DNA of 64,000 nt from Escherichia coli. GTDB lineage: Bacteria > Pseudomonadota > Gammaproteobacteria > Enterobacterales > Enterobacteriaceae. Location of the stretch: assembly GCF_024298765.1 (NCBI RefSeq), contig NZ_CP101211.1. One strand, 5' to 3'. Numbering within the stretch: position 1 is the first letter of the stretch; every line of letters starts with the position of its first letter. This document shows positions 2,293-40,496 of this stretch, one piece after another. A model generated the notes under the pieces. It did not search any database. It worked only from the letters and a program-made list of their open reading frames with translations, and was not told where the DNA came from. Position numbers and translations under genes: made by a program.

Positions 2293-2883
2293 ATGAAGAT
2301 CTACGTCATCAAAATAGCAGTTCATGGAGTCAGTCCGATGGTCTGGCGTCGGCTGAGAATTGCTGCCGACACGTCACTGGCCGCGCTTCACTTCATTTTC
2401 CAGATAGTGCAGGGCTGGGGGGACGACCATCTCCATCAATTTCACATTTATGGCAAAGATTACGGTATCTCCTACGAAGGAGGCATCGGTTTTGTCGATA
2501 ATCCGTTCCGGGTCGTGATTGATGATTTTGCTTTTGATGCTGGCGATCGCTTTACCTATGAATACAATTTCTTTGAGCACTGGCTTCATGACATTCGTGT
2601 TGAGGCCATTTATGAAAACTCTACGCTGAAAGCGCCGTTTTGTATAAGCGGCCATGGTATGCCCGGAGCCACAGCTGCGGATGAGTTCGATAAAACCCTG
2701 GCGTTTCTTGAAGCTATCGTTAATGCGGATGATGAAACAACGGTCGGCGAGATCCGCCCTTTTGCTGACGACCTGGATGCTGTCAGGTTCAACCGCCACA
2801 AAATCAACCGGCAACTGAGCAGGCTCGACCTTGCATCTCCGGTACTGGAGCCTGAAGTTATCTGGCTGGGCCGTCGTCGCTGA
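2293..2883 (+). CDS. Passenger protein of the IS (pRiA4b ORF-3-like), function unknown
   Basis: 196-aa ORF inside the IS boundaries, upstream of the recombinase and transposase genes; family name from memory only. Confidence 0.6.
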   Translation: MKIYVIKIAVHGVSPMVWRRLRIAADTSLAALHFIFQIVQGWGDDHLHQFHIYGKDYGISYEGGIGFVDNPFRVVIDDFAFDAGDRFTYEYNFFEHWLHDIRVEAIYENSTLKAPFCISGHGMPGATAADEFDKTLAFLEAIVNADDETTVGEIRPFADDLDAVRFNRHKINRQLSRLDLASPVLEPEVIWLGRRR

Positions 2884-3019
2884 CTGATGTCTATAAAGGT
2901 ATACGTTTTCAGCATGCCTCTCAGATCCCCGAAAAAATGTCTATAAACCTCCCTAAATCAGTGTTTATGGATTATTCTTTAAATCTCTATGATGTTTAAA
3001 GACCTTCCGGAGGTTTTGC

Positions 3020-3592
3020 GTGCAATATGCCTACATCAGGGTAAGCTCGGCCGATCAGAATACGGCCCGTCAGGAAGAGGCATTGTCAAAGGCGGGTTTT
3101 CAGCCTGATAAAATTTGTGTTGAGCATGCCAGCGCGAAGGACACAAACCGCCCGGGGTTACAGGAACTCCTGGGGCAATTACGCCCTGGTGATACGCTTC
3201 TGGTTCATTCCATCGATCGCCTTTGCCGGAATATGTCGGATATGTGCGCTGTCACCACCCGGCTTCGTGACCAGGGCGTTACCCTTATTTTTCTGAAAGA
3301 GCAGCTGACGTTCAGCGCCGGCACAAACAATCCGATGCAGGAACTGCAGCTGCACATGATGTCGGCATTCAGCCAGTTTGAACGAGCCTTACTGAAGGAA
3401 AGGCAGGCCGACGGCATCGCCGCGAAAAAAGCACGGGGTGAAAAAACAGGGCGCCCCGGCGCCGATATCAAAAAGATCCAGGAAATTGACGCACTCAGAA
3501 GCAGAGGGGTCAGGCTCAGGATCGCCTGCGACCATGCGGGCCTTGGCGTTTCCACATATTATAAGCTTCGTCACCAGATGAACAACCAGTAG
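3020..3592 (+). CDS. Serine recombinase (resolvase/invertase family)
   Basis: N-terminus YAYIRVSSADQN with the catalytic Ser context and a C-terminal helix-turn-helix; 190 aa. Confidence 0.8.
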   Translation: MQYAYIRVSSADQNTARQEEALSKAGFQPDKICVEHASAKDTNRPGLQELLGQLRPGDTLLVHSIDRLCRNMSDMCAVTTRLRDQGVTLIFLKEQLTFSAGTNNPMQELQLHMMSAFSQFERALLKERQADGIAAKKARGEKTGRPGADIKKIQEIDALRSRGVRLRIACDHAGLGVSTYYKLRHQMNNQ

Positions 3593-10451: not shown

Positions 10452-13371
10452 CAACGTTTTCTGCCTCTGACGCCTCTTTTAATGGTCTCAGATGTCCTTT
10501 GGTCACCAGTTCTGCCAGCGTGAAGGAATAATGGCCGAGCATATTGATATGTCCGTGGCAAAGCGGGGAGAGGCGTGCGATATCTTCATCATTCAGTGTT
10601 TCACCCTGCGCCCGGAGATGATCCAGGGCTGCCTGCATATAAATAGTGTTCCATAACACGACGGCGTTAGTGACCAGCCCCAGTGTGCCCAGTTGATCTT
10701 CCTGACCGTCGGTATATCGTTTTCTTATCTCACCTTTTTGACCGTGACAGATGGCTCTGGCAACGGCATGGCGACTTTCTCCCCGATTAAGCTGGGTCAG
10801 AATGCGCCGGCGGTAATCTTCATCATCAATATAATTAAGCAGATACAGCGTTTTGTTGATGCGCCCCACTTCAATGATTGCCTGAGTCAGTCCGGAAGGA
10901 CGTTCACTTTTCAGCAATGAACGGACCAGCACTGAAACCTGTACTTTGCCCAGCTTCAGGGAGCCAGCGGTCCGGATCATTTCGTCCCACTGAAGGACTA
11001 TTTTTCGGGGATCTGATTGCCCTCTGGCAATATCATTCAGCACGCCATAGTCGGCATCATGGTCCATTCGCCAGAAAACCGAAGCACCGGCATCAGCCAG
11101 GCGTGGAGAAAACTGGTATCCCAGCAGCCAGAAAAGGCCAAAGACAAGTTCGCTGGCACCTGCTGTATCGGTCATAATTTCGGTTGGATTCAGCCCGGTC
11201 TCCTGTTCCAGAAGACCTTCCAGCACAAAGATAGAGTCCCTCAGCGTCCCCGGTATAACGATGCCATGAAAGCCGGAATACTGATCGGACACAAAGTTGT
11301 ACCAGGTGATCCCTCTGTTATTACCAAAGTATTTGCGGTTCGGTCCGGCATTGATTGTTCTGACTGGCGTAACAAAGCGCATTCCATCTGCAGATGCCAC
11401 TTCTCCTCCACCCCATATCTGTGCCAGTGGCAGCGTTGCCTGAAAATCAACCAGTCTGGCATTAGCGCTGGTGATAGTTTCAGCCCGCAGATAGTTCGCT
11501 TTTGTCCAGTTCAGCCGGTGTCGGGTCAGTGCAGGAACATTTGATCTGATCAGTGGTTCCAGACCGATATTGCAGGCTTCAGCCATCAGCACGGCGCTGA
11601 TGCTGACGGGCAGATCATCAACTCTGGCACTGGCTTCACTAGCATGGAAAAACTCATCAGCAAATCCGGTATGGGCGTTAATTTCGAGCAGCAACTCCGT
11701 TAAATCCACCGGAGGGAGTAGATCACTGATCATTTTGCTCAGTCGTTTCAGACTGTCCGGCTCATCAAGACTGGCGAGGGGAGAAATTGTCAACCGGGGC
11801 TTCGGGCCAGAAACATCGAGTTCGACAGCCTCATTTTCGCAAAGACGTGCAGCAACCTGTCTGTAACGACTATCAAGCTGATGACCCAGAGATTTTATTG
11901 CTTCCTGCGGGTCTGTCGGGTGCCCCAAAGAACGATAAACCTTAATCCGGTTTGCCTGCCAGTCAGCACCCTGTAGTAATCTTGCACGAGGATCTCCCCA
12001 CCGGTTACTGCCGGTAACGTAGACATCCCTCCGCCTCAGACTATCCTGCAGTTTACTGAGAAAGCAGAGCGTGTATCCCCTGCGGGTGATATGTTTTTCC
12101 TTGTTAATCACCAGCCGTTTCCATGACCGACTGATAATTTCCGTTGGTGCGTCGTCAAAAAACTGCCGCCGTGAGCTGAACTCCCGGCTGAGGTAGTCAC
12201 AGGCATTCAGAGTGGTAACCCCGGCAGGTGCGGATGAAAATTTAACGGTATTCAGCAGATGGGGCAGGAAACGACGAACGCGCCCGTACTGCTCCACCAT
12301 TTCTTCATGAAAATTATCGTCTGAGGGCCGGGCAATTTCACGGACAAGCGTGATGATTTCAGCCAGCTTTTGCCTTGGGATGTAGCTGAACACCTCAGCA
12401 CGAATCGATTCGTCCGGTGTTTCTTCTTTCAGCAGGTACGAACATGCGCTGGCGAGCGCCAATGCAGATTTATCCAGATCCTTCAGCGAGCGGAGCCGTT
12501 TTTTCTGCCCAATCTTTCTGGCGTCACGGATGATAACGGCCAGCATGGCGTCCAGAACGTCCAATGCATCATCCAGCGCCAGCGTTTCCCATGCAAGGAC
12601 AAAGGCAACCAGAACCGCCATCCTTTTCTGCGGTGACATCCTGGCAATATTGAACACCGAAGTCATACCAGCATAACGTGCGAGATTTTTCAGGCGCACA
12701 GCCGGGAGTGTACTCAGGTTTTCAGCATGCAGGCCAAAATCGTTCAGAGTTTTCCAGCGTTCAATTGCTTCATTAAACGCCGGACCACTGATGGTCACAG
12801 GGCCCTTTTTCAGTGATTCCAGTAAAGACAGGCGGCTGCAATCAGTTGGCCCCAGCAGCATCTCCAGCTGTGAACGCTGTTCGGCTGACGGTATCAGTGC
12901 CAGTTTGTTCCACAGGCGCAACGTCGCCTTTTCCCTTACCTCTGAAATCAACCGGGTCAGCGTAGTGGCTCCGGGGAGAATAATACGATGTTGCATAAGC
13001 CACCCTGTCGCCAGATCGAAAAGCAGGCCAGGACGTTCGTTGCTTATCCAGCTCCGGGTATATAAAAGACGGGTAAGGCGAAATGTCCAGGGCCAGGCAA
13101 ATTCACGATACTGATAGTGCTGACGTATCAGCGCTGCATGCTCACGGCGGGTATTTTCCCTCTGACCGTATTCTGCAAGAACGGTGATATCACGAATCCC
13201 GAGCTGTCTGGCGGTAAAATGCCGGACGCCGGAAGGAATATGATTCATATCGGTGAGGAAGGTGCCCAGAAAACGGACACATCCAATTTGCAGGGCAATG
13301 CCCAGACGGTTGTGATCACCTCTGCTTTTTCCGATAAATTCCTTGTCTGCTTCATCAAGGTGAAAATATCG
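10447..13371 (-). pseudogene. tnpA: Tn2/Tn3-family transposase lacking about 27 N-terminal codons (IS6100 insertion)
   Basis: Native sequence begins RYFHLDEADKEFIGKSRGDHNRLGIALQ...; the first 25 codons of the supplied ORF are IS6100 sequence. Confidence 0.85.
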
Positions 13372-20553: not shown

Positions 20554-21373
20554 GGCACTGTTGCAAAGTTAGCGATGAGGCAGCCTTTTGTCTTATTCAA
20601 AGGCCTTACATTTCAAAAACTCTGCTTACCAGGCGCATTTCGCCCAGGGGATCACCATAATAAAATGCTGAGGCCTGGCCTTTGCGTAGTGCACGCATCA
20701 CCTCAATACCTTTGATGGTGGCGTAAGCCGTCTTCATGGATTTAAATCCCAGCGTGGCGCCGATTATCCGTTTCAGTTTGCCATGATCGCATTCAATCAC
20801 GTTGTTCCGGTACTTAATCTGTCGGTGTTCAACGTCAGACGGGCACCGGCCTTCGCGTTTGAGCAGAGCAAGCGCGCGACCATAGGCGGGCGCTTTATCC
20901 GTGTTGATGAATCGCGGGATCTGCCACTTCTTCACGTTGTTGAGGATTTTACCCAGAAACCGGTATGCAGCTTTGCTGTTACGACGGGAGGAGAGATAAA
21001 AATCGACAGTGCGGCCCCGGCTGTCGACGGCCCGGTACAGATACGCCCAGCGGCCATTGACCTTCACGTAGGTTTCATCCATGTGCCACGGGCAAAGATC
21101 GGAAGGGTTACGCCAGTACCAGCGCAGCCGTTTTTCCATTTCAGGCGCATAACGCTGAACCCAGCGGTAAATCGTGGAGTGATCGACATTCACTCCGCGT
21201 TCAGCCAGCATCTCCTGCAGCTCACGGTAACTGATGCCGTATTTGCAGTACCAGCGTACGGCCCACAGAATGATGTCACGCTGAAAATGCCGGCCTTTGA
21301 ATGGGTTCATGTGCAGCTCCATCAGCAAAAGGGGATGATAAGTTTATCACCACCGACTATTTGCAACAGTGCC
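20554..21373 (-). mobile_element. IS26 (820 bp, complete); right edge of the resistance region
   Basis: 14-bp terminal repeats at both ends. Confidence 0.95.
20606..21328 (-). CDS. tnpA: IS26 transposase
   Basis: Identical translation to the other IS26 tnpA copies. Confidence 0.95.
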
Positions 21374-26335: not shown

Positions 26336-26394
26336 AAGCAGACGGCGGGAAGAGAATGTTCAAAAGTGACTTTTGGACACGCACATAAACGTGG

Positions 26395-30930: not shown

Positions 30931-33900
30931 CTACCTTTTATTTTCATTAAGCCACTGATCCGCTTTATCGACACGTGACTGGTAAGGCTCATTTGTGTTG
31001 CTCAGCTCTGACTTCATGTACTGAATGAATTCATCTGCTTTCTGAGGCCCAAAGCGTGGGTCATCCGTCAATTGCTGCCGGATAGCCCTTTCAGAGTTCT
31101 GCGCTGCATTCGCATAAGTCGAAACGCCGTCGCTGCTAATACTCTGATACCGGTCACTTACAGCTGCGACGCCATCAGACATCTGCATGTGATTAAGGAC
31201 TTTACCCTGGAGAGAATCAGGCATATTTGCAGGGTTAGAGGCATCATTTGCTATCGATGTCTGGGTTTGAAGGATGCCCGCTCCCGTAAGCATCTCATTT
31301 ACCGGTTTCGCCCCAACGCTGGTTAGCGTATCCGAAACAAATTGCTGGCCCCCGAGTAGCGCACCAGAAATCGCGCCCCGCTCAGTGTTGGCCTCTATCT
31401 TTTCCCCAACCAAGCGATCTGTGACGGTCTGAGTGCGGTTACCAACGAGACCACCGCCCGACCCACCCTCTCCTAGGTTTGCCCGTACGACTGACTCAAG
31501 TGAACCATCAGCTCTGTTATGAGTGTTGAAACTGCTATGGATGCTCTGAACGTCATTCATACTCCAGTTAACGTTATAGTTACCCAGTTCATTAAGGATC
31601 TTCTGGGTATCCGCTTTGAGCTGCTCTCTTTCGGCACCGGTAGCCATGGTGCTGGCACCATAGGTAAAGACAGCTTGCTGTGCCAATTCAGCTCGCTTAT
31701 CGTCCCGGCTTAAGTTCGGGTTGTTGGCAACACGACTAAAGTAGTTATCAGTGTTATTAGATAAGCCACGAACTTGACCGCTCTGATACATACTGTTCAA
31801 AGCAGTGGCTCGTTGATCCATTCCATCACCAACCACCCGACCTCCGGTAGCCTTTTCCAGATCGTTAAATGTGCCTTCTGCATTTCTGACATCCTGACCT
31901 GAATTGACGACTTTCTCTACACCCTGATTATTCAGTACAGGGCCATTCGTTTTGAGAGAATTGAGCACATTCCTTTCTTCATCAGAATAAGTGCGGCCCA
32001 CGTTGTTGTTATGTATTCCCTGAATATCGCCTTTGCCCGCGTTATCAAGGTTATACGGAGTAAAGCCAGCTTCACTTTTTCCAGGGACACGCTGAGTCGC
32101 GTCCTGAGCGTTGGAGGAAAGACCGAGTTTAGCCTGCGAATCAACACTTCCACCCAGTTCCCCTACGCGTGACGCACTCATCACGCCAGACGTATTTACG
32201 CTGTCAGGAGTTCTATCCTGTGCCTGAGTGATAGTATTAATTCCTGACCCTTCGCCTGAAATTCTGTCGAGCTGATTGGTGATAGGTAGCAGCTGCTGTG
32301 CATTACCACCGAAGTCGGAAACCAGACTTTTAAGCAGGCTGGAGGTTTCACGGAGATCCTGTTTATTACTTTCGGCCGTCTCTCCCCGGGCGGTATCAAT
32401 CGCAATTTTTTGCTCACTGAAATCTCGTGTTGCAGCCACAAGCGCGTCAGTACGTTGAAGCTGCGAACCAAGCTGATTACTGGCCTTGAAGGTATCGTTA
32501 TAGGAGTTGAATTTCTCCATAAACGCATTCTCATCCAGCCCATTCTTACGAGCAAAATTCCTTACATCATCATCACTGAAGTTTTTGTTGCGAATAGAAT
32601 CGGAGAACCTGTCCAGGTTAATGCTTTGTTTAGAATCAAGGCTCATTCCACTATTGGAGCTGGCGTTAGTCGATACCGATGTAGAAATGTTTTGCGCCAT
32701 CGTCTGTGTCGCCTGGTTCATTTTCGACGATGCTTCTTTAAACGCATTAGTATTGGATATCTGATCGCTGCTTACCTGAGACGCCGCTTTACTGAACTGG
32801 TCAGTCAAAGCAGAATCCTGGCTAAGCTGATTCGTGATTGCTTTTGAAAGGTCATTTGAAAGCGAGTCACTGCCTGTATTGGTCTTAGATGCGCCGCTAC
32901 TCAATTGCCCTGCTACAGCTGCTTTCAGCCCGGCTCCGTTGCCAGTTCCAGCACCTCCATTAAGCCCAGCGTTTAGAATAACATTTGAAGCAATGCTGGC
33001 CATCTGAGACGCACTCACCCCATGTTTCGTTGCAATACCTTCTGCTACAGAGGCACCAATCTTATCCGAGATCTGCTTCATTGTTTGCAGGTTGGTTGAG
33101 AACTGCTGGCTCGACTGTCCTGACCTTCCAATTTCACTCATCTGACTGTAACCAGCCTGGAATGAATTACTTGCCGCACTCATAACTGATGAGGTTACAG
33201 CTGATCCTTGCCCCTGGCTGTTAGCGATACTTGAACCAGCATTCCACATTCCAAGACGGAAATTACTTGAATCAACTGCGCCGCCATCGCTGTATCCCTG
33301 ACCGGTACTGGTCAAGGCGGTTCGTGTCACGTCACCAAATGAAGATTTACCGCTGTTAGGGCCATCCCATACTTTGGGCGTTACATGACCAGTATCCACC
33401 GGCGCATCGGGGGTCACTCCCTTAACCGCATTCATCATCGGGTGAATCGACTGTGTCATCAGGAATAATGTGAGTACCGGAATCAGAGCATAAAGCGCGG
33501 AAGCAACAGACAGGTATGAACTGTATGTTTCCGCAAGCCCTGGGAGCCCCATCCACGTGACGGCATTATTCTGGCTGTTGAGGGTGCTCCAGGTATCCAG
33601 ATCGGCCGTCGCGACTTTCTTCACATACGCGTTGACCATTACTGCCGTAAGCGGCCACATATTCACGAAGAGAATAAGTTGCAAATATTTCGCCGCAGCG
33701 GCAACACCATTACCACCTAACGCCAGCAGCATAAGCAAAGCAAATGGAGCAACCATGTAAGCAAACATCTCAAGGAATGCGATTGCTGCTCCAGACAGTT
33801 GTAACCACAACTGGCCCTGTGAAGCCATTGTGTTGGTTCGCTTCAGAGAAGCCTCAAACAACTGCATATCGGAAGCCAGACCGAGTGGGGTCTTATATTT

Positions 33901-34884
33901 GCTTGCGCCATTTCTGAGCTCATTCATTATGAACAGGTTCAGGGTGGCGTCATACGAACCAATAGCCTTACCGTACATACCATTTGCTGACGCCATAACA
34001 TCAGTAAAACTTGCGCCGGTAGGTGCACCATTTGCTTCGTCTGGAGTAAGGATGCCGTTTGTCTGTCCTATAAGGGAAATAGTCTGGCGAGCTTCAGCTG
34101 TACTGGTAACCTGTTTCACAGTTGACCAGACCTCATCACACGTACCAGATTTTGAACCGTTAGCGCCAACAATACTGGCAGAGGCATTCTTCAGTGCGCC
34201 TTTCATCGCCTGATTAATCCGGTCCATGCTATCTGCCAGATTAGCTGAGAAAATATCGTTAAAAATAGTTTCTTTACCGGCAATATTTGCGCTTGAGTTT
34301 TGGGTAGCCTTCAGGCAGTTGTATGCAAGAGACTGAACGGTAGCACATACGTTCATTGGCCCTAGCCCGCTGGCCGGTTCAGGAAATGCAGAACAGTAGC
34401 CCTGGCTATCGCCGCCCCATTGCAAAAACTTCACGAATCGGATCATCGGACCGAGGGTGATGTCATCGTCCAGAGTTGTTGCAGACAGGTCCACCGGAGA
34501 AAGCGGATCAAACGCAGTTTTATAATCCTTCAGCAAACCCTGGCTTAAGTTAGTGGTGACGGTGGCCATCGCAGCAATAAAAATTGGAATTCCGTCGACG
34601 TTTCTGACCTCTCCCGACTTTACAGATTCAATAGTTACATCCACTCGAACCATTGCCATCATGAAAAGGATCAACCCCAAAAACCAGGAGAAAAACGGTA
34701 ATTCATTTTTGGTCGGAGCCTGAAGCCATAGCCACGTTTTATAGAATAGGCTCACACCTGCTACAACGGCGGCCGTGGTCAGGAACTCTTTTACACCAGT
34801 ATATTGAGAAAAGATTAGGGCAATACCGGTAAAAGCCGACCAGACAAAATCAATATCACCCAGGGTATATATGTTGTAATCCAT
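30931..34884 (-). CDS. trhG: F/H-type conjugative transfer protein TraG/TrhG (mating-pair stabilisation, large inner-membrane protein)
   Basis: 1317 aa, polytopic N-terminal half and Ser/Gly/Asn-rich periplasmic region; follows traH. Confidence 0.7.
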   Translation of the reverse strand: MDYNIYTLGDIDFVWSAFTGIALIFSQYTGVKEFLTTAAVVAGVSLFYKTWLWLQAPTKNELPFFSWFLGLILFMMAMVRVDVTIESVKSGEVRNVDGIPIFIAAMATVTTNLSQGLLKDYKTAFDPLSPVDLSATTLDDDITLGPMIRFVKFLQWGGDSQGYCSAFPEPASGLGPMNVCATVQSLAYNCLKATQNSSANIAGKETIFNDIFSANLADSMDRINQAMKGALKNASASIVGANGSKSGTCDEVWSTVKQVTSTAEARQTISLIGQTNGILTPDEANGAPTGASFTDVMASANGMYGKAIGSYDATLNLFIMNELRNGASKYKTPLGLASDMQLFEASLKRTNTMASQGQLWLQLSGAAIAFLEMFAYMVAPFALLMLLALGGNGVAAAAKYLQLILFVNMWPLTAVMVNAYVKKVATADLDTWSTLNSQNNAVTWMGLPGLAETYSSYLSVASALYALIPVLTLFLMTQSIHPMMNAVKGVTPDAPVDTGHVTPKVWDGPNSGKSSFGDVTRTALTSTGQGYSDGGAVDSSNFRLGMWNAGSSIANSQGQGSAVTSSVMSAASNSFQAGYSQMSEIGRSGQSSQQFSTNLQTMKQISDKIGASVAEGIATKHGVSASQMASIASNVILNAGLNGGAGTGNGAGLKAAVAGQLSSGASKTNTGSDSLSNDLSKAITNQLSQDSALTDQFSKAASQVSSDQISNTNAFKEASSKMNQATQTMAQNISTSVSTNASSNSGMSLDSKQSINLDRFSDSIRNKNFSDDDVRNFARKNGLDENAFMEKFNSYNDTFKASNQLGSQLQRTDALVAATRDFSEQKIAIDTARGETAESNKQDLRETSSLLKSLVSDFGGNAQQLLPITNQLDRISGEGSGINTITQAQDRTPDSVNTSGVMSASRVGELGGSVDSQAKLGLSSNAQDATQRVPGKSEAGFTPYNLDNAGKGDIQGIHNNNVGRTYSDEERNVLNSLKTNGPVLNNQGVEKVVNSGQDVRNAEGTFNDLEKATGGRVVGDGMDQRATALNSMYQSGQVRGLSNNTDNYFSRVANNPNLSRDDKRAELAQQAVFTYGASTMATGAEREQLKADTQKILNELGNYNVNWSMNDVQSIHSSFNTHNRADGSLESVVRANLGEGGSGGGLVGNRTQTVTDRLVGEKIEANTERGAISGALLGGQQFVSDTLTSVGAKPVNEMLTGAGILQTQTSIANDASNPANMPDSLQGKVLNHMQMSDGVAAVSDRYQSISSDGVSTYANAAQNSERAIRQQLTDDPRFGPQKADEFIQYMKSELSNTNEPYQSRVDKADQWLNENKR

Positions 34885-34892
34885 GTCAGACC

Positions 34893-36308
34893 TCAGTTAC
34901 GTGTGCCACGAATACTTTCAGTGAAAGCCTTCCGTTGCAGGCGACGGTTATCCCAGGTTGAAATGACGTCCGAGCTGGTACCGACCTGGCTGTGCGATAG
35001 CTCATAGGCGGCTTTAACCTGTTTTGAGAGATTGTCTGTTAATCGGTTGAGATCATCCCTTTTACCCGACAGCGACTCACTCGGTATGCTCATGGTTGAA
35101 ATTTTGGCCTCAACCTGGCGCAACATGTTGATTACGAGGCTCGTCGCAGCAATAGTGCTTATGTCCTGAATGTATGCGTACCCTTCCGGTGCTTCGAATG
35201 TTTGCAAAGAGTCGATAATGGTCGGGATGCCGATATAGGAGATAATGCGTAATTCATCATCTGAAACACGAACGTCGTTGATGATTTTTTTCTGTACGTT
35301 TAAAAGAAGATCAGAAATGGTATCCTTCAATCCCTTAAAACCACCGTCATTAACTTCTGACATGACAAGGCACTGAGCCTTTCGTGGGGATGATGGATCT
35401 GGTGCCGGAGAACACTTGAGCATTTTAATTGATCCGCCAGCTGGTGGCCCCATGATGTAATCCGTGACAGTCATGGTAGACGGGCGGACTTCCATTCCCG
35501 CTTTTTCGCCTTTGCTATCCCAGTTGATAATGACAGTACCCACGAGAGACATAAGTTGTTCTGCCAATTTATAACCGGATAACTCCGTTACCCCTCCGAT
35601 GTTCATTGTTCCCTTATCAATATCCATGAACGACATATAGAAGAGGTTACCACTGAATTTTTCAGCGAACTCTTCGGGATCCTTTGCTTTAACCTGAGAA
35701 GTGACAGCTTCAGGTGACTTTGTCATCGATGAGCCAAAATCAGGAATGAGACCATTAATCGATCCCAGAATTGAGGCTGGTCCAGAGCTAACTGAGTTAG
35801 CGAACTGGCTTGGCGTACCCACGTTTTCAGAAAGGAAAGAGTAAGTTGCATTGCATGAATCTTTCGCAAATTTATTTAGCGCTTGCAGTTTGTTTTGGAT
35901 GTCATTAATCGTTGCAGCACAGTCAGCACAAATAGCTGAAACAGCAACGTTAAAAGCATAGATAGCCGCACCCTGGGCAATACCACGGGCCACCTGCACA
36001 AGCTGGTCCCCGTTGATCATGCTGAAGGACCCAAGAAAAACGTCAATACCATTACAACCGACAGAAGCTTTTGGAAACGACATGGAAACAAGGTTGGTAT
36101 TAACGTTTGTTGTTCGGTAAGACATTGACCCGCCAACTATGCCTGTACGGGTTGCTGTGGAAAAGGTGGCCGGGCTGGTAGACGTCATCATGCCATTGAA
36201 AATGTTACGCATTGCGTTGTCTGCATTTGCAGTCGGGGCTAAAATTGCAGCACAAACAGAAAGAGACAAAAGTAACTTTTTGAAGTTGAAAACGGCATTA
36301 CTGCGCAT
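34893..36308 (-). CDS. trhH: F/H-type pilus assembly protein TraH/TrhH
   Basis: Signal peptide MRSNAVFNFKKLLLSLSVCAAILAPTANA (start taken at the Met at 36308); about 470 aa. Confidence 0.65.
   Translation of the reverse strand: MRSNAVFNFKKLLLSLSVCAAILAPTANADNAMRNIFNGMMTSTSPATFSTATRTGIVGGSMSYRTTNVNTNLVSMSFPKASVGCNGIDVFLGSFSMINGDQLVQVARGIAQGAAIYAFNVAVSAICADCAATINDIQNKLQALNKFAKDSCNATYSFLSENVGTPSQFANSVSSGPASILGSINGLIPDFGSSMTKSPEAVTSQVKAKDPEEFAEKFSGNLFYMSFMDIDKGTMNIGGVTELSGYKLAEQLMSLVGTVIINWDSKGEKAGMEVRPSTMTVTDYIMGPPAGGSIKMLKCSPAPDPSSPRKAQCLVMSEVNDGGFKGLKDTISDLLLNVQKKIINDVRVSDDELRIISYIGIPTIIDSLQTFEAPEGYAYIQDISTIAATSLVINMLRQVEAKISTMSIPSESLSGKRDDLNRLTDNLSKQVKAAYELSHSQVGTSSDVISTWDNRRLQRKAFTESIRGTRN
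36270..36282. repeat. Backbone palindrome copy AAAAGTAACTTTT, inside the trhH 5' coding region
   Basis: Exact copy encoding FNFKKL of the signal peptide. Confidence 0.75.
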
Positions 36309-37344
36309 AAGTGCCTCCAAAACTGCCGCCAGCATTGAGATAATTGACCGGATCGGCCGTAGGCATGTCATAGCCTTCGAGTTTTTGGTCCATTATTTTT
36401 TGAAGTAAGAATGGGTCTGATTCCATTTCGGATTTATTAACGGTAATAACGCCATCATCACCGATGGTATATTGCCTTTTAATATCTAGAGTTGACTGAA
36501 ACGAAGCGTCATCGATCAGATTCATGCCCTTCGCGGCAAGTATAATAGTGTTCTTTAATTCATCAGCGGAGATCATGCCTTCACTAATGCGCTGAGCTGA
36601 TGTCCCATCCTTTGAAACCAGGAAAATTGTAGGTACCTCTCGAATTTTAAATTGATCAATAATTTGTGCATTGGGGATGTTAAAATCCTGAAAAAGGCCA
36701 TTATGCAATGGCCTTCCATCCATACTGATTGGAAGAATATCTACCGAATAATAGTTCTGCATAAATTGAAGTATTTGGCTCTCTTCGTGGCAAAACTGGC
36801 AAGTACTCTGGAAAAAGAAAAATAAACCTGACTTAGTAAAGATATCTTTCATTACCGTTTGCTGATTTTTTTCAACAACAGTGCGGTGAGCATCCAGTGC
36901 CACCTTTTCCACTGGTTGCCTGCGTTTTTCAGACATCATCGGGTTTTTAAGAAAATAATCTTTTGATTTGTCAGAAAAACGCGTACTGATATCCAGCATT
37001 AACCTTTGCGCCGTGTAATAACGTGATAGATTTTCTGCGGTAGGGTTATCCATTGCCTGCGTTAACAGTCGAGGAATATTCTCTTTTAGCCATTTTGAAT
37101 TTAAATCTACCTTTTCCTCTTTTGAAGGCGAGCTAGCAGCACCGGTTGGTGGCAAAACCTTTTCTTCTTCAGCTTCGCTTTTTTTAGCAGGATCGTCATA
37201 CCAGAAGAAACCCTTCTTATAAGCCTGGCCTGATACAAAGGGCGTATCTTTTATTAGGGGTTGCTCAGGGCTGGCGTGGGCACCAGTAATTACCAAAGAC
37301 ATAAGCAAAACCATCTTTGAAGGCGCTAATGCAATACGAGTCAT
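36298..37344 (-). CDS. trhF: F/H-type pilus assembly protein TraF/TrhF (thioredoxin-like, CQFC)
   Basis: Signal peptide and a thioredoxin-like C-terminal domain with CQFC; first gene of the traF-traH-traG operon. Confidence 0.6.
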   Translation of the reverse strand: MTRIALAPSKMVLLMSLVITGAHASPEQPLIKDTPFVSGQAYKKGFFWYDDPAKKSEAEEEKVLPPTGAASSPSKEEKVDLNSKWLKENIPRLLTQAMDNPTAENLSRYYTAQRLMLDISTRFSDKSKDYFLKNPMMSEKRRQPVEKVALDAHRTVVEKNQQTVMKDIFTKSGLFFFFQSTCQFCHEESQILQFMQNYYSVDILPISMDGRPLHNGLFQDFNIPNAQIIDQFKIREVPTIFLVSKDGTSAQRISEGMISADELKNTIILAAKGMNLIDDASFQSTLDIKRQYTIGDDGVITVNKSEMESDPFLLQKIMDQKLEGYDMPTADPVNYLNAGGSFGGTYAQ

Positions 37345-37937
37345 AGACCGTTCTCCTTTTCTGATGCGGTTATGATGGCATACAAAAAAAAGGTTAGAGC
37401 TCGTATAGCATGGTCGTTTTTATGTTGAAAAGGACGGAAAAGGAGTGCTGACTAAGAAGATAGTCTCGGTGATGGAAAGATCATCCATCTTGCACATTGT
37501 GAAAAATCCGGTGTAACAAAAACATGGTTTTATCGAATATCTAAAAGCAAATATTGCTTTGAAAACAGGTGTATTAAGAGCTGAAAAAAATCATCACCAG
37601 TAACGCTGTTTCTATATTTCAAAGAAGGAATAGCTAAGGATCAAAGAAGCGAACTTAGGCAAGAATATAAAATATATTAATTGAAAGCGATTAAGAAGTC
37701 GTCATGCATAGAAGGTTTTAGAGAACCTAAGTAGTTTTACGTTTTCAACAGAAAAAAAGGTGAACATTTTTTGGAACGAAGAAAGACTGTATAAAGAAAA
37801 ATCAAATTATATCTTTACTTGTCAAGAGTTAATATTTAAGTTGTAACTAATATTTGATTGTAAAGCAAACAACAGAATTTGACTTAAGTCAATATTTAGA
37901 TTCAGACAAGGCAAGTTTCGCGATATCTTTTTTAAAT

Positions 37938-38450
37938 TTAATCTAATTCTTCTTGAGAATACCTCTCTATGGCTGAAGCAGTTGAAGATAATCTGCAACG
38001 TGGACAATAAGCATCATTTGTCACTGGCACAATGTATGGGCGTTTACATTTTTCGCAGGCACCTAGTTCTTCAATTTCTTTCATAGAAGTAAGGATTTCT
38101 ATTATTTTATTAACTTCCGGTGCGCATACAAAGTATCCCAGATTATGAAGGACACTCATTATTCGGTTGAAGTCAATTTGCCGAAAACTCGCTTCCGGAT
38201 TTATTGGATCAAAACCAAAATAGTTAACTGCGACATCAATAACAGCAGAAAAAGCTCGGCGGTTATCTGTGCGTTTGCTCCAGCCCCGGATACCTTTTTT
38301 GAGTTTTGTTTTTGCACCAGGCTCAAAATCGATATTTTCAGCAACATGATTACCGTACAAAATTCGTATTGTATTTTTATTTGCCCCAAGCGACATAGTC
38401 CTTGCTGCTCGCAATAGAGCATTAGCTTTTGTTTGATCGACCTTTGCCAT
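37938..38450 (-). CDS. FlhC-like regulator with a C-terminal C-x2-C-x15-C-x2-C zinc ribbon
   Basis: CEKCKRPYIVPVTNDAYCPRC has the Cys spacing of FlhC-family activators. Confidence 0.5.
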   Translation of the reverse strand: MAKVDQTKANALLRAARTMSLGANKNTIRILYGNHVAENIDFEPGAKTKLKKGIRGWSKRTDNRRAFSAVIDVAVNYFGFDPINPEASFRQIDFNRIMSVLHNLGYFVCAPEVNKIIEILTSMKEIEELGACEKCKRPYIVPVTNDAYCPRCRLSSTASAIERYSQEELD

Positions 38451-38451
38451 A

Positions 38452-39252
38452 TTAATAATCCTTTAACATAACTTTATTTGTTAAAGTGTTGAACACATCC
38501 TGACGGTGACTGGTGAACATAGTGTCATAACGTAATAGTTCCATCAAATCATCACTAACTTTTCCTAACCGGATGTCAGCAGACAATTCATAAGCCCAGG
38601 CAAAAACTTTCGTTTTAAGTGAAACACTCTCTTCAATATGCCCTTGTGAGAAAGCAATTGTACGTGGGAAAAGAACGACATCGTTAATTGTTTTTAACGA
38701 TGAATAACCAATGTCTTTAATAGCATCAGCTGTAGTTGGTTTTAAACCAAAGAAAACACTTACAAACTCTGGTGCGAGCATTGAGATAAAGAACACCTGC
38801 ATAAAGTAGTCATTCTGTATATCAACACATTTAGAACGCAACTCATGAATCTTCTTGGGATTATAGATATCCACTGTACCATTCAGAAAAGTCACTTTTT
38901 CACCGGCATCGTAAATACCATAGTCAATATCATTTGTATCATATTCACGAATTACATTGGAATCACCGTCCAAGACCGCAGAAAAAAACCTCTCCCATGT
39001 AATTTCCTTTCCGAGTGTACGCGGAACCAAAAAACTACCTGGACGTGTTTCCACTTCAAAAGCTAAATCAGCGGCTGTACTAAATCCTTTCCCAAATAGG
39101 CGACGCTGGAGAAGAGGAGTCCCAGTTTGATATGCAGAAGATCCATGCACAGGCAATAACATTAAAAATGCACGGTAACTACGAATAAGCGAAATCTCAG
39201 TGCGGAAAAGTTTACCGAGTAAGCTACGAGTTAAATTATCAGATTCTGACAT
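38452..39252 (-). CDS. Hypothetical protein co-transcribed with the FlhC-like gene
   Basis: 266-aa ORF ending 1 bp before the FlhC-like start. Confidence 0.45.
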   Translation of the reverse strand: MSESDNLTRSLLGKLFRTEISLIRSYRAFLMLLPVHGSSAYQTGTPLLQRRLFGKGFSTAADLAFEVETRPGSFLVPRTLGKEITWERFFSAVLDGDSNVIREYDTNDIDYGIYDAGEKVTFLNGTVDIYNPKKIHELRSKCVDIQNDYFMQVFFISMLAPEFVSVFFGLKPTTADAIKDIGYSSLKTINDVVLFPRTIAFSQGHIEESVSLKTKVFAWAYELSADIRLGKVSDDLMELLRYDTMFTSHRQDVFNTLTNKVMLKDY

Positions 39253-39329
39253 GTGCTGATTGTCCTTGCGCCATTACAATTGTTCAAATCTTCAACATGG
39301 ATTTTTTGTTAGGTGTTCGGTAGGGTGAA

Positions 39330-39342
39330 AAGTAACTTTTAG
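39330..39342. repeat. Backbone palindrome copy AAAAGTAACTTTT
   Basis: Exact copy about 80 bp upstream of the 266-aa gene start. Confidence 0.8.
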
Positions 39343-39349
39343 TATTTTC

Positions 39350-39372
39350 TTAAGGCTTGAATAAGCCTTAAA
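39350..39372 (+). repeat. Inverted repeat TTAAGGCTT-gaata-AGCCTTAA
   Basis: Perfect 9-bp arms, 8 bp downstream of a 13-bp palindrome copy. Confidence 0.5.
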
Positions 39373-39578
39373 TCTATCCCTTCAACCACACCGCTTACTT
39401 GTAACACTTTTTAACCAAACTGACCAGAATTTTATCAAAATTTCTTCGCATGCTAACGAAATGTGAAGCGATTAAAAAAAAACCTAAATCCAGCCCCTCC
39501 CAACGTTGGATTAGAATAACGACGTCTTTCACTGACCGTCATAAACTGACATTTTTACTTTTCATCAACCTCATGCTT

Positions 39579-39744
39579 ACATAGGATCACTAAACAAAGA
39601 AAAGTGACCCTATGAATACCTCACATAGGGTCACTTATGTTTGAAAAGTGACCCTATGTAATGTCGTCATAGGGTCACTTTTTATAAAAGTGTCACTATG
39701 GACAAAGTTCCATAGGGTCATTTTTTTTGGAAAAGTGGCACTAG
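39579..39744 (+). repeat. Array of about 8 copies of CATAGGGTCACT / AGTGACCCTATG in inverted pairs (candidate oriT or operator)
   Basis: Pairs at 39603-39635 and 39647-39679 (9-bp spacers), degenerate pair at 39689-39722, extra half-sites at 39579-39590 and about 39733-39744. Confidence 0.7.
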
Positions 39745-39813
39745 ATATATGTATAACTTTAATAGAGCAATGCACATTATCAAAAGCAATAATCCACAAT
39801 GGTCATTCCCTCA

Positions 39814-39825
39814 AAAGTAACTTTA
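39814..39825. repeat. Backbone palindrome copy (12 of 13)
   Basis: AAAAGTAACTTT about 190 bp upstream of the relaxase operon. Confidence 0.7.
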
Positions 39826-40010
39826 GAGGGTAGCGATGGAAGTGAGGCTAAACTCGCTGTTACTGTTTCTGAAGGCCCCTCCCGAATGGGGGAAACAGCG
39901 AGTGCATTACATCTGTTCAATTCCCTCATCAAAGAGCATTCAAAAATCTTCTGTTCGTGAAAAAAAACGGAAATTTCCTCCGGTATAGTAATTTCACATC
40001 AGGAGGCGTC

Positions 40011-40496
40011 ATGAGTAATTCGAATCTTATAAGTTCTATAGAGCTAACACGTAAAAATTTACGTGCTCAGATTGAAGGTTTGCGTGTTGAGGCTGAAGAT
40101 CTCATTACAAAATACTGGATCAAGTGGAAGGAACGAAACCACCAAGAGATTAACCTTACCCGACATAGCAAAGTTCCAAAGAGGGAGTATCTGGGTTCTT
40201 ACGCACCAAAAGTTGAGCTAATTGGTAATGCCAGAAAAGTAACGATCACTTGGCATCAGTTCAGCCCTTATAAAACAAGAGCGCCTAGTCACATGTCAAA
40301 ACGGGTGCAACCAATGAAAAGTGGAAAATATTCTAAGAACTGTTTTGTAAACCATGCCAGCTGGGAATACGAAATGATTTCTGAAACGGAAGCATTGCTG
40401 GAGCCTTACAGAGAAATGCTTGAGCTCTATCATTCAGCATATATCGAACTTGGACGAAAAATCCGTCAATACTCAAAAACTAAGGTGGCACAATGA
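40011..40496 (+). CDS. Hypothetical protein, first gene of the relaxase operon (possible relaxosome accessory factor)
   Basis: AGGAGG ribosome-binding site before the ATG at 40011; the supplied ORF starts earlier at 39957. Confidence 0.45.
   Translation: MSNSNLISSIELTRKNLRAQIEGLRVEAEDLITKYWIKWKERNHQEINLTRHSKVPKREYLGSYAPKVELIGNARKVTITWHQFSPYKTRAPSHMSKRVQPMKSGKYSKNCFVNHASWEYEMISETEALLEPYREMLELYHSAYIELGRKIRQYSKTKVAQ

Follow-up and report, generated by a model that had tools for sequence, protein, structure and literature searches.

In the IncHI1 prototype plasmid R27, the R operon consists of trhR and trhY, and activation of the transfer operons F, H, AC, and Z needs the products of both genes together (PMC7366339; PMC9410318). 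At the protein level the two activators are opposed by the anti-activator HtdA, and silencing of trhR by H-NS at 37 °C makes transfer temperature-sensitive. The subject of this article is the corresponding gene pair in a stretch of 64,000 nucleotides (nt) of Escherichia coli DNA (contig NZ_CP101211.1), referred to below in its full length as the window, and the relationship of this pair to the two-protein activators FlhDC, AcaCD, and SetCD. We consider it likely that TrhR and TrhY are both the IncHI activators and an extremely diverged heteromeric activator of the FlhD/FlhC type, like AcaCD and SetCD.

AcaCD of IncA/C plasmids and SetCD of SXT/R391 elements and of the IncT plasmid Rts1 resemble the IncHI pair in being encoded by two adjacent genes in D-then-C order, in lying near mobI and traFHG, in requiring both subunits, and in activating tra operons. 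The requirement for both AcaCD subunits has been reported (PMC4207636), AcaCD and SetCD are direct class II activators (PMC4542580), and the SetCD-type pair of Rts1 has been described (PMC10838148). In IncC, acaD-acaC is located between traG and mobI, and in an Rts1-like Klebsiella plasmid a setD/setC-like pair is located between mobI and traN-traG. The C subunits of these activators carry a C-terminal Cys4 ribbon, as TrhY does, and their D subunits, at approximately 170-200 amino acids (aa), are larger than FlhD, whereas TrhR is longer still, with 266 aa and an additional C-terminal tail of approximately 65 aa. The anti-regulators also differ in kind, since Acr1/Acr2 and SetR are transcription repressors, whereas HtdA is an anti-activator. 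The flagellar complex FlhD4C2 (PDB 2AVU, 8J56) differs from the IncHI pair in its low identity (7%), in the spacing of the Cys residues (x16, compared with x13 in TrhY), in the size of FlhD (116 aa, compared with 266 aa for TrhR), and in its regulon, which is flagellar rather than conjugative. Among the mobile elements that a review of FlhCD-like activators names, IncHI does not appear (PMC4542580), and in the open literature no paper was found linking TrhR or TrhY with FlhC or FlhD.

The window belongs to an IncHI2-type plasmid; a matching plasmid that was examined, pSTM6-275, types as IncHI2A/MOBH/MPF_F, and the segment 37600-39700 is present at an identity of at least 99% in 944 plasmid records. 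The open reading frame (ORF) of 266 aa at 38452..39252 and that of 170 aa at 37938..38450, both on the minus strand, are trhR and trhY, the first and second genes of the R operon in the IncHI2 Tra1 region, and thus represent a known system. RefSeq labels both products as "hypothetical protein", NCBI sources give the name trhR to homologues of the 266-aa protein, and an AFDB entry named TrhR is 100% identical to it; the 170-aa protein is named in no source, and the name trhY was assigned by gene order. Both genes are orthologous to those of IncHI1 pB71, with identities of 77% for TrhR and 85% for TrhY, and the order of mobI, oriT-like repeats, and trhR-trhY-trhF-trhH-trhG is the same in that plasmid. 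Downstream of trhY on the same strand follows the F operon (30931..37344, minus strand), comprising trhF (36298-37344), which encodes a thioredoxin-family TraF, trhH (34893-36308), and trhG (30931-34884), a gene with a TraG_N domain, as annotated by RefSeq in the identical plasmid pSTM6-275. On the divergent side, upstream of trhR, lie mobI (40011..40496, plus strand, RefSeq annotation), which is the first gene of the H (relaxase) operon, a 245-aa ORF, the MobH relaxase gene, and traD. On an IncHI plasmid of type MOBH/MPF_F, the pair therefore occupies the Tra1 position with oriT/mobI on one side and trhF-trhH-trhG on the other. Compared with the circuit of R27 (Gibert et al. 2014, Mol Microbiol 94:1146; PMC7366339), the genes, their position, the promoter block, and the presence of htdA on the same IncHI2 plasmid type are shared; the present locus differs in being the IncHI2 allele and in carrying, upstream of trhR, a 9-bp inverted repeat that is specific to IncHI2. 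Members of both protein families occur only on plasmids of the IncHI1, IncHI2, and Klebsiella IncHI1B/IncFIB types, a TrhY homologue being carried by approximately 2,400 plasmids, and HtdA is without a recognizable family or solved relative.

A preliminary description, made from the letters of the window, had located both ORFs upstream of the pilus operon and had proposed that they may encode the transfer activator; both points agree with the annotation, in which they directly precede trhF/trhH/trhG, and with the published dependence of the F, H, AC, and Z operons of R27 on TrhR/TrhY (PMC7366339, PMC9410318). The G+C content of the locus is 32-38%, compared with 42-47% in the flanking tra genes, which fits the silencing of trhR by H-NS. 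The activator role of the pair is already published, so its identification here adds little by itself.

The evidence for a relationship with FlhC comes from the zinc-ribbon motif of TrhY and, above all, from its predicted structure. The motif, C132-x2-C135-x13-C149-x2-C152, is encoded at 37995..38057 on the minus strand; its four Cys residues are invariant across full-length homologues and occupy the same C-terminal position as the zinc site of FlhC, so that the motif forms a putative C-terminal Cys4 zinc site. In E. coli FlhC the motif reads C137-x2-C140-x16-C157-x2-C160, and in plasmid members of the FlhC family the central spacing ranges from x14 to x18, with x15 in AcaC. The Cys motif had been noted in the preliminary description, which was right as to its existence and wrong as to its spacing, given there as x15; and since the spacing varies so widely among plasmid FlhC-family proteins, that of TrhY is neither the same as in FlhC nor diagnostic. 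In a profile-profile comparison (hhalign), the ribbon of TrhY aligned Cys-for-Cys with that of the FlhC family, at an E value of 1.3e-3 and a probability of 18.6%, and was the only part to align; a cross-control of TrhY against D subunits returned nothing. When the predicted structure of TrhY was searched, FlhC was the single top match, and the match spanned 110 residues, compared with approximately 20 for the ribbon. On this model, TrhY very probably has the FlhC three-dimensional fold, and the suggestion of an FlhDC-like two-protein activator is supported, although the argument first used for it was flawed. Beside these results, three unrelated proteins (P0071, P0072, and P0074) contain tandem ribbons of the form C-x2-C-G-x-P-Y-x-V-x7-Y-C-P-x-C, with the x13 spacing and signature of TrhY, and a match to an IS91 zinc-binding domain (E 0.24) was dismissed as noise.

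For TrhR, three weak but concordant and independent signals to FlhD/AcaD converge on residues of approximately 128-190, a putative FlhD-like helical module encoded at 38683..38871 on the minus strand. Residues 128-190 aligned by hhalign with AcaD 96-156 (E 0.077), a segment overlapping AcaD's own Pfam FlhD domain at 106-179, and comparisons of TrhR with a mixed D-subunit alignment and with SetD-like proteins gave E values of 0.56 and 0.58, respectively, the cross-control against C subunits returning nothing. A Foldseek search of AFDB50 with the TrhR model first recovered the TrhR family and then weak full-length matches to proteins of approximately 190-220 aa, among them a Vibrio "putative flagellar transcriptional activator" of 211 aa (probability 0.75) and a Yersinia pestis IP275 regulator of 221 aa (probability 0.72), whose length would suit IncC AcaD if a start codon farther upstream were used. 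Taken together, these signals make an FlhD/AcaD-like nature of TrhR somewhat more probable than an unrelated one. As separate observations on D subunits, IncC AcaD (encoded at 2610-3218 of its locus) matches Pfam FlhD at 106-179 with an E value of 3.8e-4 and very weakly a second time at 19-94 (E 2.8), so D subunits of approximately 200 aa may be tandems of two FlhD-like modules; in the TrhR model, too, residues 3-64 and 132-186 form helical modules that resemble each other. The order of the genes is likewise that of flhDC and acaDC, with trhR-trhY following D-then-C and nearly abutting, the junction TAA-T-ATG leaving a gap of 1 nt.

If this reading is correct, TrhY would be the FlhC-like subunit, in which a helical body binds DNA and the C terminus holds a Cys4 zinc site, and TrhR an enlarged FlhD/AcaD-like subunit produced from the same mRNA just upstream of TrhY. 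The TrhR/TrhY complex would attach to the DNA at tra promoters and bring in RNA polymerase, and HtdA may play for TrhR/TrhY the role that FliT and YdiV play for FlhDC.

Several results weigh against an FlhDC-type origin. The profile search against the FlhC family that the preliminary description had proposed found no statistical similarity, as PF05280 matched none of 10 TrhY family members and all seven plasmid FlhC-like controls, including AcaC and SetC-like proteins; on this measure, which the preliminary description had itself set, the claim fails. NCBIfam contained no match for TrhY or TrhR, BLASTP of TrhY against E. coli FlhC gave an E value of 13, and sequence-profile searches of the PDB returned nothing linking TrhR or TrhY to FlhC/FlhD. 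When 1.84 billion representatives were searched in full with a HMMER profile, the search yielded 29 proteins, nearly all fragments of the narrow TrhY family together with generic zinc ribbons, and provided no bridge to FlhC; similarly, word-indexed searches of 5.8 billion proteins recovered only the narrow IncHI/Klebsiella family, with no FlhC/FlhD link. Taken as sequence statistics, these results give no support to membership in the FlhC or FlhD families. The structure models, which are of middling confidence, were built on shallow alignments of 10-12 sequences, with predicted local distance difference test (pLDDT) scores of 71 for TrhY and 66 for TrhR, and in TrhR only residues 1-200 are usable, residues 201-266 being unmodelled. 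Each of the TrhR signals is sub-significant, and PF05247 matched none of 12 TrhR family members, which is a weak test because only two of seven D-subunit controls (upstream-gene products) passed it. Finally, a heteromer that would bind promoter DNA is suggested by the 1-nt adjacency of the genes and the published co-requirement.

These negatives could be explained if TrhR and TrhY were the known IncHI activators but evolutionarily unrelated to FlhDC, forming a family of their own, with the FlhC-like model reflecting a generic helix-turn-helix plus zinc ribbon or the prior knowledge of AlphaFold. Such an explanation accommodates the outcome of every sequence and profile test, the restriction of the hhalign match to the ribbon, the shallow alignments behind the models, and the recurrence of the signature C-x2-C-x-x-P-Y/F-I/V ... 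C-P-x-C, with x13, in unrelated repeat proteins. It fits poorly, however, with a single top match to FlhC that extends well beyond the ribbon, with TrhR pointing independently to FlhD/AcaD by three methods, and with a gene order, co-requirement, and MOBH/MPF_F context that match those of AcaCD and SetCD, and is regarded as improbable. A different arrangement, in which TrhR is an inner-membrane sensor or transmitter of temperature or growth phase that controls a cytoplasmic DNA-binding TrhY, would amount to a membrane-tethered two-part activator with no soluble FlhD4C2-like complex. In size, TrhR exceeds FlhD more than twofold, and its residues 150-168 have a mean Kyte-Doolittle hydropathy of 1.74 in IncHI2 and 1.67 in IncHI1, the classical threshold for a membrane helix being 1.6. 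A summary of Gibert et al. moreover calls TrhR a membrane protein and TrhY cytoplasmic (PMC9598596), and, like the hydropathy, the statement on TrhR tells against a soluble D subunit. Nevertheless, the segment contains a conserved Pro-Glu, its equivalent in other family members stays below 1.4 (1.2-1.4 in some), and in the Klebsiella lineage the equivalent is not the most hydrophobic TrhR segment and no such segment exists; additionally, residues 150-168 fall on the very helices through which TrhR matches the FlhD/AcaD core, and AcaD-type subunits are also approximately 200 aa long. We therefore hold a membrane-bound TrhR to be quite improbable.

The third alternative concerns mechanism, proposing that TrhR/TrhY raise tra expression indirectly by countering the silencing of AT-rich tra promoters by H-NS/Hha, rather than by class II recruitment of RNA polymerase. 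Over-expression of trhRY overcomes repression at 37 °C, where H-NS dominates, and an htdA mutation de-represses 139 of the 181 expressed R27 genes (PMC7366339), a breadth typical of anti-silencing. A k-mer search also found no k-mer common to the promoter regions of F, H, AC, and Z, the four operons that depend on TrhR/TrhY, and this lack of an operator shared by the target promoters counts against the FlhDC-type reading as well. Direct activation is nonetheless favored by the fold relationship with FlhC and by the direct class II action of AcaCD and SetCD (PMC4542580), and indirect activation appears quite improbable. A more far-reaching version of the FlhDC-type reading would make TrhR/TrhY a cryptic FlhD/FlhC-type complex undetectable by profiles, derived from one ancestral master activator common to all MOBH/MPF_F conjugative elements (SXT/R391, IncA/C, IncT, and IncHI), with HtdA as an anti-FlhDC-type factor and the motif AAAAGTNACTTTT, described below, as the operator of the TrhR/TrhY circuit or of another plasmid-wide regulator; as a whole, this combination is doubtful.

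The region upstream of trhR contains the 13-bp palindrome AAAAGTAACTTTT (AAAAGT-N-ACTTTT) at 39328..39340, 76-88 bp upstream of the trhR ATG. Conserved in IncHI1 as well, this palindrome belongs to a motif repeated across the plasmid. The preliminary description had reported this palindrome together with a perfect 9-bp inverted repeat in the upstream region of the pilus operon; both elements were recovered, and they stand upstream of trhR, not upstream of the pilus-assembly (F) operon. In the window, AAAAGTNACTTTT occurs in 13 copies at no more than one mismatch, far above the 0.35 expected by chance, and the sites, of 13 bp each, begin at 26362, 27263, 29356, 36268, 38887, 39328, 39813, 43236, 44674, 46404, 51306, 56355, and 56481, all within the backbone part at 26-57 kb. 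The 143 kb backbone of pSTM6-275 contains 36 copies, of which 19 are perfect, compared with 0.7 expected, and the mismatch spectrum is sharp. Four copies are found in 12.5 kb of IncHI1 and eight in 16.5 kb of a Klebsiella IncHI1B/FIB plasmid, at equivalent positions: the traF/traH junction, the region preceding mobI, and sites adjacent to or upstream of trhR and trhY. Lineages whose TrhR/TrhY are only 28-35% identical carry the motif in unaltered form, the sequence flanking its copies is not conserved, and no copy was found in IncC and the other MOBH loci examined.

When site positions were read against annotations, 17 of the 36 copies proved to lie between genes, as a rule 75-250 bp ahead of a start codon. 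The motif is present upstream of trhR, mobI, and trhA, that is, at the R, H, and AC promoters, and the promoter regions of Z/parM and AN contain an 11-bp core of it; the F-operon promoter region has no copy in the IncHI2, IncHI1, or Klebsiella lineage, and inspection of the flanks by eye showed no consistent spacing to a -10 element. The F operon is a published TrhR/TrhY target (PMC7366339), and AcaCD and SetCD, which are similarly diverged, recognize different boxes (PMC4542580). Since the motif is missing at the F promoter and remains invariant where the AcaCD and SetCD boxes differ, it is not obviously the TrhR/TrhY box, and its binder could be TrhR/TrhY, HtdA, or another plasmid protein. 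No description of the motif was found in the open literature.

As an analogy for the motif alone, the KorB operator OB of IncP plasmids is a 13-bp palindrome repeated around the plasmid. OB and AAAAGTNACTTTT share a 6-N-6 palindromic design, many backbone copies, and frequent proximity to promoters, and they differ in that their sequences are unrelated, approximately half of the AAAAGTNACTTTT copies lie within genes, and no cluster of AAAAGTNACTTTT is found beside parAB. Some intragenic copies fall in the first codons of trhH and trhU, where they encode K-K-L-L-L, and of htdO, where they encode G-K-V-T-L (sites 36268-36280; L013 30726 and 4824), and the N-termini encoded there resemble signal peptides by eye. 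In the Klebsiella plasmid, two copies flank the start codon of traH (10482-10511), an arrangement suggesting that the DNA, and not the peptide, is under selection. In that same IncHI1B/IncFIB plasmid (7041-9072), the trhR-like and trhY-like genes are approximately 190 bp apart with a copy of the motif in the gap, and trhY is followed by an extra 180-aa ORF with no family match.

Several other repeats and signals accompany the locus. The perfect 9-bp inverted repeat, TTAAGGCTT-N4-AAGCCTTAA with a 4-nt spacer, spans 39350..39371, with arms at 39350-39358 and 39363-39371; in Markov simulations of the 323-bp stretch, 3% held at least one perfect 9-bp inverted repeat, and the element is not conserved in IncHI1. 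A consensus scan predicted an R-operon promoter-like site at 39429..39456 on the minus strand (TTAGCA, a 16-nt spacer, and a TG-extended TAAAAT), both hexamers of which lie inside a block conserved between IncHI2 and IncHI1. Between trhR and mobI, a dense array of 15-bp inverted repeats CATAGGGTCACTTTT / AAAAGTGACCCTATG at 39576..39745 is nearly identical in IncHI1 and is probably the origin of transfer (oriT) region, by analogy with the position of oriT upstream of mobI in SXT and IncA/C; the array half-site GTCACTTTT overlaps the 13-mer consensus, and Rfam, applied to 37000-40200, gave only spurious hairpin matches on the array. The trhY-trhF spacer (37345..37937, minus strand, 32% G+C), which is the F-operon promoter region, contains as its sole repeat the perfect 14-bp palindrome TTGACTTAAGTCAA at 37879-37892, 46 nt downstream of the trhY stop codon; in IncHI1 its sequence is retained only in part and lacks palindromic symmetry. 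Outside the backbone, positions 1-25000 of the window have a higher and patchy G+C content of up to 67% and contain no copy of the 13-mer; a 240-aa ORF occurs there in five copies (1464, 5919, 7622, 17536, and 20606), and the one at 20606 overlaps what is annotated in pSTM6-275 as an IS26 transposase gene. This part of the window looks like a resistance or accessory region.

What is new at this locus is limited to two leads, the fold-level link to the FlhDC/AcaCD/SetCD class and the dispersed palindrome. IncHI1 and IncHI2 plasmids carry resistance genes, and the TrhR/TrhY circuit sets the temperature-dependent transfer of these plasmids. Placing TrhR/TrhY in the FlhDC class would supply a structural and mechanistic model for the circuit, with a D4C2-type complex, a zinc site, class II activation, and subunit-sequestering anti-activators, and would suggest specific mutants and experiments, the operator of AcaCD having been located by ChIP-exo. 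The dispersed palindrome, for its part, may mark an unrecognized plasmid-wide control network, and membership in the FlhDC class, if true, would unify regulation over the whole superfamily of resistance-spreading elements.

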